Shown here: positions 13,362-27,769 of the stretch, piece by piece
Position numbering within the stretch: position 1 is the stretch's first letter
Layout: each line of letters begins with the position of its first letter
Origin: Deltaproteobacteria bacterium
Lineage (GTDB): Bacteria > Desulfobacterota > JADFXK01
Assembly: GCA_015233355.1 (NCBI GenBank)
Contig: JADFXY010000001.1
Span: forward strand, 1 to 46,331
Direction of reading: 5' to 3'
Length of the DNA stretch: 46,331 nt
Position numbers and translations under genes: made by a program
The notes under the pieces: generated by a model
Told to the model about the DNA's origin: nothing
What the model saw: the letters and a program-made list of their open reading frames with translations, nothing else
Databases searched by the model: none

Positions 13362-13586
13362 ATGGAACAGACAGCCGGCGTTAACGAGTTTAATCAAAAT
13401 GTTGGTGAAGAAAATCATGAGGAAAAATTGAAGGCGGCGTTGACGGAACTCAATCACTTTCTGGCCGGGAAGCCGAAAATGCAGATGGTTCAACAAGAAA
13501 TTGAACGGCGGTTGGATAACGAACCCAACACTGTGAGCCGGTTGATTGTCATCGGACATGTAATCCGTTCCAGTACCAAATATTAA
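13362..13586 (+). CDS. Small hypothetical protein (74 aa)
   Basis: ATG preceded by AACAGGAGAAGC. Charged helical sequence. It ends next to the IS remnant, so its 3' end may not be native. Confidence 0.3.
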   Translation: MEQTAGVNEFNQNVGEENHEEKLKAALTELNHFLAGKPKMQMVQQEIERRLDNEPNTVSRLIVIGHVIRSSTKY

Positions 13587-13611
13587 TAATCCTATATCTC
13601 GGGCTTTCTCT

Positions 13612-13697
13612 TTAATCTATCGCTACCTTCGCCCTAAAGGCGGCATCGGACCTCTGCCGCATCCTCTTCATTTAAGTCCTCCTTGTTGTACTAATCA
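13612..13697 (-). mobile_element. IS3-family left-end remnant (terminal repeat plus the first ~19 codons of orfA)
   Basis: The minus strand reads TGATTAGTACAACAAGGAGGACTTAA-ATG, encoding MKRMRQRSDAAFRAKVAID-stop. It is nearly collinear with the longer remnant at 35318-35600. FRAKVA is the conserved N-terminus of IS3-type OrfA. Confidence 0.5.
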
Positions 13698-13761
13698 AGG
13701 CTGTCTTCACACCTTATCAGGCTGTCCAGTGCTTGGGGAGCATAATCGACCCAACCACCGG

Positions 13762-13850
13762 GACGGAAATTCCTGCCTTAATCAATTGCGATTGACCAGA
13801 TCGAAACTCATTTTCAGCTTGACAACTGAACCTTGACCGCATAAAAAACA
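13762..13850 (+). repeat. Promoter-like repeat, copy 1 (contains CTTGACAACTGA)
   Basis: About 90 bp similar to 23246-23340. It includes an identical 12-mer CTTGACAACTGA (13818-13829), with TAAAAA 17 nt after the TTGACA. Confidence 0.4.
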
Positions 13851-14246
13851 AAATTGTAGTCTTATGTCCTTAACTTTATCCTCACTATTCGGGATAAAGA
13901 TGGATCTATTCTGCAGTCATTATATCTTTATTTTTGAATAAACAATATTCCGCCACCCACATTTTTAACCCACAAAATTCTTTCTTATATCTTTAAGTTG
14001 TTGCCTTACACCGGTAACCGTAACATGAGATAATAGACCAACATATTCGGTTTCTTTGCTATCGGCCGGATCAAACCAGGTGATATAAGCTGGGTTCGGT
14101 AAGAGGAGACTTTCCCCATAACCATACACTTTGAAAGGCTCTCGCAAAACTCAATAAAAACATCACCCCGGCGAAAGCCGATGTCCGAAAGACATTGAAA
14201 GGCCAGGCTTCAAGTTTTGGTCCAAATGACATTGAAGGAGAATAAA

Positions 14247-15794
14247 ATGGACAAAGAAGAGAAGAATACGACGGGTTTGACGAGAAGGCAAATGTTGACG
14301 GCTTCCGGATTAGCCTTGGGTGGGTTTCTTATCGACCAAGCAATTCCCGGAATAAACGAAGTTCGCGGAAATGACGGCTGTACCTGTCCCAGCGGGCCAA
14401 CGTGCAACTGGGAAAATACACCAAGTTCACAGGTTTATACCTACTTTGACTCGCTGCCTCCTTTCTATCCATTCGATTCAAGCACAAAGACAAACATTGT
14501 ACCCTTGGGAGAAAACGAAATGCGGATCACCTTCATGGGGTCTTCCATTCCTCCCACCTTGCGCCATAAGCAACAGATGATGAGTGTGTTTGTCGAAGTT
14601 GGCTGGGATAAAGACAAACAGATGCCGATCGACCAGTTTGTTTTCGACTGCGGATCGGGAGTATGCACTAATTACAGTTCCATGAACGTCGGATTCGGGA
14701 GGATGAATAAGGTCTTTATTAACCATCTTCACGGGGATCACATGTCCGATCTGACTCATATCTACTGCTTCGGACCTTCCGGGGATCGTCAATTTCCCCT
14801 GTATGTCTGGGGGCCAAGCGCGTCGGGGGTAGAGAGTCCCAAAGGTTCCGGGAGATATTATGACGACGGGGTGAAAGCTTTCTGCACTCATCTTCGCCGG
14901 GCTTGCCGATGGCACACGGAGAGTTTCAGCTTTCAATCCACCAGCTATTCCGGTTATCAGGTTCCAACAAAGAAAAGTTGGGGGTTGCCGTGCGATCCTG
15001 TTCCCGTTGAGGATGATGCGCCGAATGATGGATATGCTCTGGTTCCGATTGAGCTGAACTGGAGGAAATATTGAAATGATGAAGGAGATAACGTTGCTTA
15101 TCACGATCCGGCTACAGGTGTAAATATAACGCAATTCCCCGTTATCCAAGCCCGGCATGGCTCCATCGTCTATAAATTATATTGGTACGGGCTGACCATG
15201 ATCTACACCAGCGATACCAAGCCTGAGTATAACAGCATTATCCAGGCGTCCAATAAGGGCAAGGGTGTGGATGTGTTAATTCACGAGATGATAGTCCCGG
15301 CTCAGGTGTGGGCCATGAAACTTGCACATCAATCCACACTTCCAGATCCAACCAGCCCCAGCGTCCAGTGGGCGACAATGGTTCAAAACAGCTCCCACAG
15401 TCCGCAGGGGGCTTTCGGTTATCTTCTGAGCCAAATAAAACCTCGACCGCGTCTTACCGTGGCCACGCATTTTCCGGTAGCCGATGACACTGTTGCCTGT
15501 GCCCTGAAGAGCGTGAACGATCACTGCCCCGATGTTCAAATGGGTAAGGATTTGATTTGGAGCTTCGACCTGATGACTATAACGGTCTCCAAAGACAAAA
15601 TTACCCCAATGAAAGGAGTTGTGTCGGATTTCAGCTTCTCTCCGACGGTAAATTTACCTTCTGGTACACCGAATGTGCCGAAGTATCACGATGCCAGCGG
15701 CAATGGTGACCCCTATGCCCAAATTTGCACGGATACGGCGGTTCCGGCTTGCGGAGATAATAATGAGTGCAATTACCGGACAGATGGGTATTAA
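14247..15794 (+). CDS. Tat-exported metallo-beta-lactamase-fold hydrolase (RNase Z / phosphodiesterase-like), interrupted by one in-frame TGA at 15072-15074
   Basis: The two ORFs 14217-15074 and 15198-15794 are in the same frame, and codons 15075-15197 are open. Twin-arginine signal TRRQMLTASGLALGG. MBL motifs are distributed across both halves: HLHGDHMSDL before the TGA, then ARHG, IYTSDT, LIHEM and VATHF after it. ATG at 14247 follows AAGGAG. Confidence 0.7.
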
Positions 15795-15935
15795 TCCGTA
15801 ATTATAATGAGTACCCCCACGCTCTGCCGGCAATTCTGTTGAATTAAGGTGAGGCTTGGAGTGGAATCCACATCGTTGTCTGAACTGTGATTATTTTGAT
15901 CGATAATGATGTTTGTGGAAGTTCATCAACAGTGG

Positions 15936-15961
15936 TAGGGGCGAGGCATGCCTCGCCCCTA
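15936..15961. terminator. Perfect GC-rich palindrome between convergent genes (possible bidirectional terminator)
   Basis: TAGGGGCGAGGCATGCCTCGCCCCTA lies between the MBL gene end (15794) and the maturase gene end (16038). There is no clear U-tract. Confidence 0.4.
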
Positions 15962-16037
15962 AGGATGGGTTTTCCCTCCCACCCGTCAGTCCGGTGCCGC
16001 AAATAACAGTTCACCGGTAACGTCACCGGCAAGTCTT

Positions 16038-17354
16038 TTACGTGGAAACCTCTCCGACAGCCGAAGGCTTCTCAGATGCTTCGGGCTGATCCGCCGCCTC
16101 CATGATCTTCTGGACGGGTATGCCTCTGTAAATAAGCTCCACCATCCGGGTCATGGCCGGATGAACGGAATAATAGAATTTTTTAAATCCTTCGCAGAGA
16201 TAGTTTAGTCCTGGTTCTCCATCGGGAGATGTGACGAAACGATGTTTGGGGCAGCCGCCGCGGCAGGCAAAAAGGAGCTCGCATCCGCGGCAATATCCGT
16301 GCAGGGCGGTTTCCTTTGATGCGCCGAAAGCGATCTGTTGGGTTGACTGGACCATTTCTTTTAACCCGCGCTCAAGAATATTTCCCAGGCGAAAAGCCGG
16401 GTACATGAAATGGTCGCAGGAAAAAATATCGCCGTTGTGCTCCAATATCAGGTTCCCCCCGCAGCGGGGAGCGAGATAGCACACACCAGGGGCGACCCCG
16501 GCCCAGGCGCCCAGGGTCCATTCGAAATTCATGACAAAGATCCGGCCGACATCATTTCTTATCCACTCCTGGAAGACCTGGATGAGGAATTCACCATATT
16601 GGGTCGGCCCGACACTCCAGGGGGTCACGGTGGTCGACTTCTCTTCGTGGGTGAGAGACGGCGGCGCGGCCAGAGACATGCCCAATCTTTCCGCGGCGGA
16701 ATCGGTCTCCCGTTCCACGATAGGGATAAATTGGATAAACTGCACCCCGTGTTGCCGGAAAAAACGGTATACTTCAAGAGGATGCGTTGCGCTTTGGCTG
16801 TTCACGGTGGCCAGAACGTTTATTTCCACGCCAGATCTTTGCATCATCCTCAGCTTATCCAAAACTTTGGTGCAGGTTGGCCGGCCAGCCTTGTCCCGGC
16901 GATAGGCATCGTGAACCACCGCGGGACCATCCAGGCTCAACCCAACCAGGAAGTTGTTCCTGGACAGAAAAGCACACCACGCTTCATCGATAAGCGTTCC
17001 ATTTGTCTGAAGCGAATTTGAAATCTGTTTTCCCTGACTGTATTTCTTTTGAAGATCCAGGGCCCGCTGGAAAAAATCAACCCCCAGTATGGTCGGTTCA
17101 CCACCCTGCCAGTCGAATACGACGGATGGTCCCGGCTGGGATTCGATATATTCTCTGGTGTAGGTCTCAAGAACTTCATCAGACATACGGAAGGTTCTAT
17201 TTTCAGGGAAAAATGCCTTTTTTTCACGATAAAAACAATAGCCGCAACGGAGATTGCAGGACGGCCCGGCGGGCTTGGCCATAAGGTGAAAGCCCTGGGG
17301 CAGAGGACCATCGCGATCAGAGGTTTTCTGATTGGTTTTCTGGTTATCGGCCAT
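16038..17354 (-). CDS. Anaerobic sulfatase-maturating enzyme (radical SAM / SPASM, formylglycine-generating)
   Basis: Radical SAM motif CNLRCGYCFY near the N-terminus. C-terminal SPASM cysteine cluster CRGCELLFACRGGCPKHR. It lies immediately downstream of a Cys-type sulfatase gene on the same strand. Confidence 0.85.
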   Translation of the reverse strand: MADNQKTNQKTSDRDGPLPQGFHLMAKPAGPSCNLRCGYCFYREKKAFFPENRTFRMSDEVLETYTREYIESQPGPSVVFDWQGGEPTILGVDFFQRALDLQKKYSQGKQISNSLQTNGTLIDEAWCAFLSRNNFLVGLSLDGPAVVHDAYRRDKAGRPTCTKVLDKLRMMQRSGVEINVLATVNSQSATHPLEVYRFFRQHGVQFIQFIPIVERETDSAAERLGMSLAAPPSLTHEEKSTTVTPWSVGPTQYGEFLIQVFQEWIRNDVGRIFVMNFEWTLGAWAGVAPGVCYLAPRCGGNLILEHNGDIFSCDHFMYPAFRLGNILERGLKEMVQSTQQIAFGASKETALHGYCRGCELLFACRGGCPKHRFVTSPDGEPGLNYLCEGFKKFYYSVHPAMTRMVELIYRGIPVQKIMEAADQPEASEKPSAVGEVST

Positions 17355-23340: not shown

Positions 23341-23824
23341 GATTTGAGGTTTTTTTCACAAACACTAATTATATCAATAAATTTCTGACCGAGAAAAACT
23401 ATCTTCCCCCACATTTTTTAGCCGGGCGATTTCTAAAAGGAAGGTTAAATAAATATGTGTAAAGTAGTATATTTTAATGTCAATAGAACGGAATCACTTT
23501 GCCAAAGACATTCGAAAAATATTGGATCAAAAATTCCCGCTGCTTTACCGGCTTGGTTTAACCGCCGGTGGCGTAATTGATTATATGCAGGGATTAACTG
23601 ATGGATCTAATTTGATGGGAAGGGTTGTCTAATGGGATAACCACAACATATGTGCGATCTGCCAAGGGCGTCGCCCGGAATTTGCTCCCACCCAGATATT
23701 CACAAATGTAGCTGGATAAAATTCATATTCAGCAGCCCAAGACCGGCTGATAGAAACCGTTATGATATTGGCTTACCTTTTTTGATTAAATCTCATTTTC
23801 AAAAAAAATAGATAGGAGTGTAGA

Positions 23825-27769
<3,945 letters not shown>

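Follow-up and report, generated by a model that had tools for sequence, protein, structure and literature searches.

Does an in-frame TGA codon in the middle of a hydrolase gene mark an enzyme whose stop codon is recoded, or a gene that has been broken? The question is raised by a locus in the window, a stretch of 46,331 nucleotides that belongs to a MAG of 633 contigs. The original prediction for this locus offered both answers, namely decoding of the TGA as selenocysteine (Sec) or by readthrough, and a very recent nonsense mutation in an MBL-fold hydrolase gene with no other damage.

Layout and family of the interrupted gene

The hydrolase gene comprises 515 codons on the forward strand. It is read from the sequence as two ORFs, 14217/14247-15074 and 15198-15794, which share one frame. 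The sole stop between them is the TGA at 15072-15074, codon 276 counted from the ATG at 14247, and the 41 codons at 15075-15197 are free of stops; the original description was accurate in both respects. The true start is the ATG at 14247. Upstream of it stands a Shine-Dalgarno-like GAAGGAG (14234-14240), whose anti-SD duplex of -9.2 kcal/mol is among the strongest of the window. The neighboring genes encode phosphatases and a sulfatase-family enzyme with its maturase (anSME).

Homologs span 100% of the query. The translated N-terminal part of 275 codons (14247-15071) contains a twin-arginine-type leader, a Cys-rich segment, the first MBL β-sheet and the sequence HLHGDH (codons 160-165, positions 14724-14741). 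The leader, GLTRRQML followed by a hydrophobic stretch, was recognized by eye and is kept in the family consensus; no Tat-signal profile of Pfam or NCBIfam matches it, even at E<=1. The C-terminal part of 198 codons (15198-15794 in the ORF list) begins at the first in-frame ATG, which is the conserved Met318. It holds the bridging Asp323 (15213-15215), His346, His384, His408 (15468-15470) and a Cys-rich tail. The ATG at 15198 has no good ribosome-binding site, its anti-SD duplex amounting to only -3.2 kcal/mol. Both congeners that carry the gene, G001 and G003, have SD-like GGAG motifs at this position, which are destroyed here by derived changes in codons 312-314.

Sequence comparison places the gene family in the PNGM-1/GntH-like branch of the MBL superfamily, as a binuclear-zinc hydrolase that is probably exported. 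HLHGDH aligns to the HxHxDH motif of PNGM-1, and His188, Asp210, His257 and His279 of PNGM-1 correspond to residues 301, 323, 384 and 408 of the hydrolase family. The published list of PNGM-1 metal ligands gives His188 as a Zn1 ligand (PMC7404133). Asp323 (in YTSDT) and the last histidine, His408 (in ATHF), are present in the C-terminal ORF, but the histidine of the third motif is absent, its place being taken by Gln301. Nor do the motifs lie on one uninterrupted chain, with the TGA at codon 276: as had been noted, HLHGDH is found 5' of the TGA and the strings ARHG, YTSDT, LIHE and ATHF are found 3' of it.

Origin of the stop and of the divergent tract

The column of codon 276 is mostly glycine. 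Among 120 full-length homologs it is occupied by Gly in 99, a gap in 10, Ala in 4, Leu, Trp and Ser in 2 each, Tyr in 1 and Cys in none, and no ortholog has an in-frame TGA at this column. The gene of the same-genus ortholog G001 is intact, 93.5% identical in nucleotide sequence and has GGA at codon 276, while G003 has GGC. As read from the aligned codons, the TGA is a plain nonsense mutation, from GGA (Gly276) to TGA through a G>T change at 15072. The nonsense option of the original prediction is supported, but its starting point needs correction: the congener codons give GGA (Gly), and not TGG (Trp), as the ancestral codon. The gene is an accessory one that decays readily. Of the four genomes of the genus three have it, against none of the 37 genomes sampled from the rest of the phylum, and interrupted copies are also present in other lineages.

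The stop is not the only damage. It opens a hyper-divergent tract (15072-15197, codons 276-317) with 22 window-specific substitutions in 126 nt, when these are polarised, compared to 19 in 825 nt upstream and 16 in 594 nt downstream, or 35 in 1,419 nt for both flanks together. The changes begin at the stop itself, are densest in a block at 15095-15188 and end 9 nt before the first in-frame ATG. The most divergent 126-nt segment in the 10.5 kb that can be aligned to G001 starts exactly at 15072. Ten of the 22 substitutions replace an amino acid; unambiguous derived replacements affect 10 of 41 tract codons versus 4 of 473 codons elsewhere (Fisher p = 3e-9). The window deviates at only four columns that are at least 95% conserved, all of them within the tract: N287D, H301Q, G308V and E312Y. 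The gene had been described as otherwise intact and without other lesions, and neither description holds in view of these substitutions.

One of these replacements is at codon 301 (15147-15149), the position of the PNGM-1 Zn1 ligand. It is CAA (Gln) here and CAT in both congeners, and the histidine is present in 120 of 120 homologs and invariant in the family alignment. ARHG, which had been listed among the metal-ligand motifs, is not a motif: the consensus is V-I-H-x-R-K/Q-G, its conserved histidine is residue 301, and His304 of ARHG is a new residue that is Gln in both congeners. In the AF2 model of the intact ortholog the tract encodes the β-strands 283-287, 292-298 and 307-313 and the start of strand 316-321. 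The stop is not a lone point mutation, because a hyper-divergent tract of 94-126 nt removes a zinc ligand as well.

The substitutions have the look of diverged coding sequence. The tract pS is 0.31, rising to 0.43 in codons 283-304, versus 0.10-0.115 in the flanks, and the tract omega is 0.47. Thirteen of the 22 changes fall on third codon positions (p 0.012) and only two on second positions (p 0.009). There are no indels, and no change is seen in the 22 nt directly behind the TGA (p 0.024). Changes from GC to AT number 11 versus 6 in the other direction. At the informative sites of the tract, which are too few for placement, the window sides with G001 at five and with G003 at six, and these six fall to two when G001's own mini-cluster in codons 315-317 is left out.

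Several sources of the tract were considered and rejected. DGR-type adenine-specific mutagenesis does not fit, as only 7 of the 22 changes start from A, and raw sequencing error is contradicted by the third-position bias and the lack of indels. Simple neutral drift since the stop arose was rejected on a clock of 4-fold sites, by which about 7 changes are expected in the tract and 22 are observed (Poisson 5e-6). Short hyper-divergent windows were also seen elsewhere between the genome of the window and G001, in non-coding DNA and linkers; these windows in unconstrained DNA weaken the clock argument. Creation of a sigma-70-like promoter within the tract was suggested by the derived TATAAATTATAT (15171-15182), which resembled a -10 box, but a scan found no promoter-like site.

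No relative with the same allele was found. A blastn and tblastn search of the 62%-complete MAG gave neither a second copy nor a donor of the tract, and none of the 120 homologs carries the derived residues at 293, 296, 301, 304, 308, 312 or 314. The exact 33-mer spanning the TGA has no match in JGI metagenome contigs, and relatives in metagenome contigs do not exceed 65% identity. Neither the exact C-terminal ORF nor the two versions of the N-terminal ORF (starts at 14247 and 14226) are on record in public assemblies, and when the N-terminal half was used to look for homologs split in the same way, nothing above 74% identity came up.

The reading preferred here, with a probability of roughly 0.65, is that the locus is an ordinary and probably recent pseudogene, in which an accessory gene for a binuclear-zinc hydrolase, probably an exported one, has been inactivated. 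It has a premature stop compared to intact orthologs and has lost invariant residues. A nonsense TGA beside a mutated stretch that removes the zinc-binding histidine points to a dead copy and not to recoding. Translation from the strong native start would end at the TGA, the decoding of which nothing appears to programme. Even if the stop were leaky, no active full-length enzyme would be expected, because of Gln301 and the three near-invariant core replacements.

The tract may have been acquired in a single step, as a short patch of homologous coding sequence that had diverged and was already degenerate. Such a patch is suggested by its sharp bounds, by pS values of 0.31-0.43 as found between species of the genus, by the third-position bias and by the conserved 1,419 nt of flanks. 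Its source would have been short-tract homologous recombination inside the cell, with an assembler chimera of strains or species as the less likely alternative, and arrival in one step would imply that the inactivation is recent. The adjacent anSME gene has a synonymous divergence of 18.9% versus an average of 11%, which indicates that mosaicism occurs at the locus.

The omega on the window branch is 0.12 for the N-terminal part and 0.06 for the C-terminal part, the same as on the branch of the intact congener, and none of about 145 conserved flank columns deviates. Selection is not relaxed over the entire gene. Such constraint leaves two possibilities, an inactivation that is recent or selection that continues. 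As the flanks show no decay, a recent inactivation is plausible.

Alternatives to a dead allele

Continued selection is the basis of the first alternative, a retained split gene. The nonsense mutation would be old, the ORF of residues 1-275 and the ORF from Met318 would both be translated and selected for a function other than that of the catalytic core, and the spacer between them would have drifted. We regard this as unlikely, although it explains what the one-step patch does not: the limits of the tract coincide with the stop and with the next ATG, as spacer drift would predict, whereas for a patch the match is a coincidence with a rough probability of ~1%. The untouched flanks beside a spacer that lost four near-invariant residues also fit a split, and so does the excess of GC to AT changes, which is expected of unconstrained DNA. 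However, the ATG at 15198 is almost devoid of a Shine-Dalgarno sequence. Furthermore, a pS that is 3-4 times that of the flanks, a third-position bias, the absence of indels and 22 unchanged nucleotides behind the stop do not resemble neutral drift, and the 22 changes are more than the 4-fold clock allows for all the time since the lineage parted from G001. The spacer takes out three and a half β-strands of the core together with the Zn1 ligand, so the halves cannot rebuild an MBL active site. A fission through the MBL catalytic core, with both products kept under purifying selection in a new non-catalytic or differently assembled role, is quite unlikely. One conceivable variant of it has the leaderless C-terminal piece co-exported with the leader-bearing N-terminal piece.

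An assembly artefact is about as doubtful as such a fission. The tract would derive from reads of a co-occurring population or of a paralogous remnant, and the real gene may then be intact. The fragmented and incomplete MAG is open to such errors, the tract is sharply bounded and resembles diverged coding sequence, and both gene-bearing congeners belong to one MAG name series (nDJH8bin5 and nDJH6bin12), so that they may share a project and may co-occur. Raw read error is hard to reconcile with the codon-position bias, and the TGA lies in a GGA-AAT context that is common to the closest relative, G001, and differs from GGC-CAA of G003. The source population of such a tract would itself carry Gln301, Val308, Tyr312 and probably the TGA, and a dead copy would therefore exist somewhere in any case.

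The remaining alternatives require that the ribosome passes codon 276. Among the stop codons of bacteria, UGA is the leakiest. One polypeptide could result from near-cognate readthrough of UGA-A, or from a hop from TAT275 to a downstream in-frame TAT. The 6-nt repeat ATATTG stands at 15068-15073 and again, in the same frame, at 15179-15184, with a spacing of 111 nt, and each of the two copies arose through derived changes. In-frame TAT codons are found at 285 and 309 too, however, so that nothing sets this repeat apart. Moreover, the readthrough product would lack the Zn1 histidine and the hop product three core strands, the stop is not associated with any stable structure, and no homolog has a comparable arrangement. 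Such a bypass is very improbable.

Insertion of Sec at codon 276 by a SelB/tRNA-Sec system of the host is more improbable still, even though the machinery is there. The genome, for which a check of sel genes had been proposed, contains tRNA-Sec(tca), two SelB proteins above the family cut-off and SelD, also above cut-off, with an in-frame TGA at its active-site Cys position; no SelA turned up in what is a 62%-complete MAG. Codon 276, however, is a glycine column and never Cys or Sec in the 120 homologs and both congeners, and in the AF2 model residue 276 is part of the stretch that joins strand 265-270 to strand 283-287, at a distance from the metal-ligand motifs. The small GATAA/TTATC hairpin pointed out originally does exist in the sequence. 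Nevertheless, the 60-67 nt that follow the TGA have an MFE of -5.8 kcal/mol, which is worse than that of shuffled sequences (z +1.4 to +1.6; 193 of 200 shuffles fold at least as well), and no Rfam family, SECIS included, was found within 13500-16100 (E<=1). By comparison, the selD gene of the same genome, which served as a control, has a hairpin of -23.6 kcal/mol 15 nt downstream of its TGA (position 4034 of contig C112). The ten derived replacements in the 41 codons behind the TGA, four of them at the conserved columns, indicate that this stretch is not being selected as translated sequence. By the grounds given in the original prediction for rejecting recoding, Sec and readthrough alike are unsupported. 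A reassigned code in which TGA means Gly (NCBI table 25) would suit the conserved glycine but has practically no chance, being refuted by stop-codon usage (TGA ends 6 of the 31 long ORFs of the window) and opposed by the two tRNA-Gly genes found in the assembly, whose anticodons are gcc and ccc, by the assembly's sole UGA-reading tca anticodon, which belongs to tRNA-Sec, by GGA and GGC at codon 276 in the congeners and by the Deltaproteobacteria-type lineage of the MAG.

The outcome is mostly negative. An in-frame TGA in a Sec-competent genome of the sulfate-reducer type is tempting as a new selenoprotein, but the ortholog column, the lack of a hairpin and the decay of the residues behind the TGA show that it is not one. 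In annotation, the two ORFs are best merged into a single pseudogene, that of an exported hydrolase of the PNGM-1/GntH-like type, instead of being listed as two hypothetical proteins. The only unusual feature is the hyper-divergent tract with its sharp bounds, which runs from the stop to just before the next ATG. If it arose by decay of a spacer in place between conserved flanks, the locus would be a rare documented split of an enzyme-core gene in which neither piece was lost; as a recombination patch or a chimera, the tract would instead call for caution about mosaic alleles in MAGs.

Comparison with known systems

The allele has much in common with bacterial pseudogenes and short-tract mosaic alleles: a premature stop, lost invariant residues, a patchy distribution, interrupted copies elsewhere, a bounded tract and raised synonymous divergence. 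Recombination mosaics leave unexplained why the stop and the next ATG should mark the limits of the tract. The selD gene resembles the hydrolase gene in having an in-frame TGA in a Sec-decoding organism. The two are otherwise quite different, because the TGA of selD stands at a catalytic Cys position and is followed by a strong hairpin, whereas that of the hydrolase gene stands at a Gly column without a hairpin and in front of a decayed sequence.

Among protein families, GntH (NF041257), the MBL-fold hydrolase of guanitoxin biosynthesis, is the best NCBIfam match of the read-through protein (E 1e-61), but the score of 208.9 bits falls well short of the curated cut-off, which is 333 bits, and the alignment is broken into two stretches, so that GntH is a related family and not an equivalog. 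The guanitoxin gene context is not present around the hydrolase gene. RNase Z/ElaC (2CBN, 1Y44 and 3ZWF) belongs to the same MBL branch, and NCBIfam RNase Z models give weak matches to the HxHxDH half, with scores far below their cut-offs for the hydrolase family. The exported-protein architecture of the family argues that it is not the tRNA-processing enzyme.

The closest known structure is that of PNGM-1 (PDB 6J4N and variants), a metagenome-derived MBL-fold enzyme with tRNase Z activity and weak β-lactamase activity. It is the best PDB match in sequence (E 3e-23), although only ~24% identical, and in fold, too, it is what the modeled intact ortholog matches best (Foldseek E 1.5e-24; TM 0.79-0.81, target-normalised). 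Features that set the hydrolase family apart from PNGM-1 are a twin-arginine-type leader, Cys-rich extensions at both the N- and the C-terminus and an insert of ~70 residues after the HxHxDH half. The allele in the window departs from PNGM-1 in two further respects, the stop at codon 276 and the glutamine at the position of His188.

Interruption of the hydrolase gene

The locus is an ordinary nonsense pseudogene of a widespread, predicted exported MBL-fold hydrolase family. The gene has 515 codons, counted from the ATG at 14247, which has a strong ribosome-binding site (GAAGGAG). Codon 276 is an in-frame TGA at 15072-15074, in the context GAG CTG AAC TGG AGG AAA TAT TGA AAT GAT GAA GGA. The 41 codons 3' of it are open, and the first in-frame ATG, GTG or TTG is the ATG at 15198 (codon 318). 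When the entire assembly was searched in all six frames, this proved to be the sole copy of the gene, with one TGA inside. The coordinates and sequence strings of the original prediction proved correct on re-reading of the window.

Codon 276 is GGA in the congener G001, whose gene is intact and 93.5% identical at the DNA level, and GGC in a second congener, G003. The event was therefore GGA to TGA, and not TGG to TGA as first proposed. The nonsense mutation offered in the original prediction is borne out, as the codon encodes Gly in relatives and is a stop only here. The description of the gene as otherwise intact is not. When changes were polarized with G001 as the sister and G003 as the outgroup, 22 were specific to the window lineage within codons 276-317 (126 nt, 15072-15197), compared to 19 in 825 nt upstream and 16 in 594 nt downstream. 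Besides the TGA, ten codons of this tract are replaced (N286H, N287D, T289A, K293N, H296Q, H301Q, Q304H, G308V, E312Y and R314Y). The window deviates at four columns that are at least 95% conserved in 120 homologues, all within the tract, and at none of the ~145 such columns outside it. His301, lost through H301Q, is invariant across the homologues and corresponds to a Zn1 ligand. The histidine of the 'ARHG' motif, previously listed among the metal-ligand motifs, is the new His304 and not the conserved His301. In the AlphaFold model of an intact orthologue the tract spans strands 283-287, 292-298 and 307-313 and the start of strand 316-321.

A 226-aa antisense ORF (14478-15158, minus strand) also covers part of the gene. 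Its ATG, the complement of 15156-15158, stems from a derived CAA to CAT change at codon 304, and the ORF is probably a chance open frame.

Origin of the divergent tract

The most divergent 126-nt window in 10.5 kb of synteny with G001 starts exactly at 15072 and has 29 differences (mean 7.1, sd 4.4). The window-lineage changes run from the stop to a point 9 nt short of ATG 15198. The pairwise divergent block reaches the ATG because G001 has a mini-cluster of its own immediately 3' of the tract, at codons 315-317 (15189-15197), which read GGA CTT TCG in G001 and GGG CTG ACC in G003 and the window.

On the window branch the flanks have pS of 0.10-0.115 and pN of 0.006-0.012, and therefore omega of 0.06-0.12, a constraint no different from that on the branch of the intact congener. 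The tract cannot belong to a uniform decay of the whole gene. Its pS is 0.31 (0.43 in codons 283-304), a 3-4 fold rise in synonymous divergence. Third codon positions account for 13 of the 22 changes (p 0.012) and second positions for two (p 0.009), indels are absent, and the 22 nt 3' of the TGA are unchanged (p 0.024). A clock based on 4-fold sites, calibrated at 11.2% pairwise over seven genes, predicts about 7 changes in the tract since the split from G001, and 22 are seen.

The tract probably came in a single step, as a patch of homologous coding sequence that was diverged and already free of catalytic constraint, brought in by short-tract recombination or through an assembly chimera. Such a patch would fit the codon periodicity and the raised pS, which is near the window-G003 dS of 0.36-0.53. 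The sharp edges of the tract would fit as well, as would mosaicism next door, where the anaerobic sulfatase maturase (anSME) gene (16038-17354, minus strand) differs from G001 at 18.9% of 4-fold sites (neighbours 6.6-15.6%) and at 6.4% of codon positions 1 and 2 (neighbours 1.2-2.6%). This divergence points either to fast evolution or to the import by recombination of a segment the size of the gene. No donor was found in the MAG, the 120 homologues or metagenome contigs, and the coincidence of the tract limits with the stop and the ATG would be due to chance; both are weaknesses of this reading.

An old stop would account for those limits, with selection maintained on both half-ORFs and drift confined to the untranslated spacer. 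However, drift predicts neither the rise in pS, the third-position excess and the lack of indels nor the 22 untouched nucleotides, and the number of changes exceeds what the clock allows. Furthermore, the halves would have to function without a catalytic core, and the C-terminal ORF has hardly any Shine-Dalgarno sequence (-3.2 kcal/mol), the SD-like GGAG motifs present there in both congeners having been lost through derived changes at codons 312-314. That the halves are still used is thus unlikely, and the one-step patch is favoured roughly 4:1. The odd geometry of the tract leaves a residual chance of about 12-15% that both halves remain in use.

When the comparison with G001 was widened to 20.7 kb, five other 126-nt windows with 26-38 differences appeared. 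Two (23377-23800) fall in the long stretch of non-coding DNA that precedes 23825. Three (26416-26542, 27346-27472 and 27595-27721), with mostly non-synonymous changes, are in a 1,314-aa kinase ORF, within two linkers, one of them Pro/Ser-rich, and the C-terminal tail. The tract is thus one of several of its kind, which makes the clock argument less strong than it seemed.

Decoding of the TGA

The organism is capable of selenocysteine decoding. The search for sel genes recovered tRNA-Sec, two separate full-length SelB homologues above the family cut-off (C17:8576-10462 and C12:4240-6132) and SelD (C112:4010-4933), itself a selenoprotein with a TGA at C112:4034 in the catalytic Cys position (KAAG-U-ASKIPP), followed by a strong hairpin of -23.6 kcal/mol. 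No SelA turned up in this MAG, which is 62% complete. Decoding at codon 276 fails every site-specific test. Of the 120 homologues, 99 have Gly in this column and none has Cys. In contrast to selD, the RNA 3' of the TGA folds at only -5.8 kcal/mol, 193 of 200 shuffled sequences are at least as stable, and an Rfam search around the site gave no match. The locus is neither a selenoprotein nor a recoding site, and the selenocysteine or readthrough option of the original prediction falls. A code in which TGA specifies Gly is excluded, as TGA ends 6 of 31 window ORFs and the tRNA-Gly genes found carry gcc and ccc anticodons, not uca.

The hexanucleotide ATATTG is repeated in frame at a distance of 111 nt, at 15068-15073 (TAT-TGA) and 15179-15184 (TAT-TGG). 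The pair formally resembles the take-off and landing codons of translational bypassing. Both copies were made by derived substitutions, and in-frame TAT is also found at codons 285 and 309.

Family and fold

Homologues of the read-through protein number more than 1,200. The top 120 are full length (~490-600 aa) and 53-86% identical, and most belong to Thermodesulfobacteriota-type, Chlorobium and purple-sulfur MAGs. The gene is accessory: three of the four genomes of the genus carry it, and it is missing from all 37 further genomes sampled from the phylum. Interrupted copies occur in other lineages. One, on a 64.6-kb contig (JGI 3300076802; L024 2501-4176), is split into ORFs of 292 and 242 aa by one frameshift near codon 250; the other, on a 198-kb contig (GCA_040769805.1; L023 2501-4100), has at least two frame changes.

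The leader, GLTRRQML and a hydrophobic stretch, resembles by eye a twin-arginine signal, and it matched no signal profile. Genes for an anaerobic sulfatase maturase and a sulfatase-family enzyme lie nearby on the opposite strand. An exported phosphodiesterase is a reasonable guess for the role of the putative hydrolase.

The top NCBIfam model for the read-through protein is GntH (NF041257), for which the score of 208.9 bits falls short of the 333-bit cut-off, and RNase Z models match weakly, on the HxHxDH half. The closest solved structure is that of PNGM-1, a metagenome-derived MBL-fold enzyme (PDB 6J4N), both by sequence (E 3e-23) and by fold (E 1.5e-24, TM 0.8 by target), the fold query being the AlphaFold model of the intact orthologue P0002 (pLDDT 84.5). 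When aligned with the zinc ligands of PNGM-1 (PMC7404133), HLHGDH 160-165 corresponds to His91, His93, Asp95 and His96, His301 to the Zn1 ligand His188, Asp323 to Asp210, His384 to His257 and His408 to His279.
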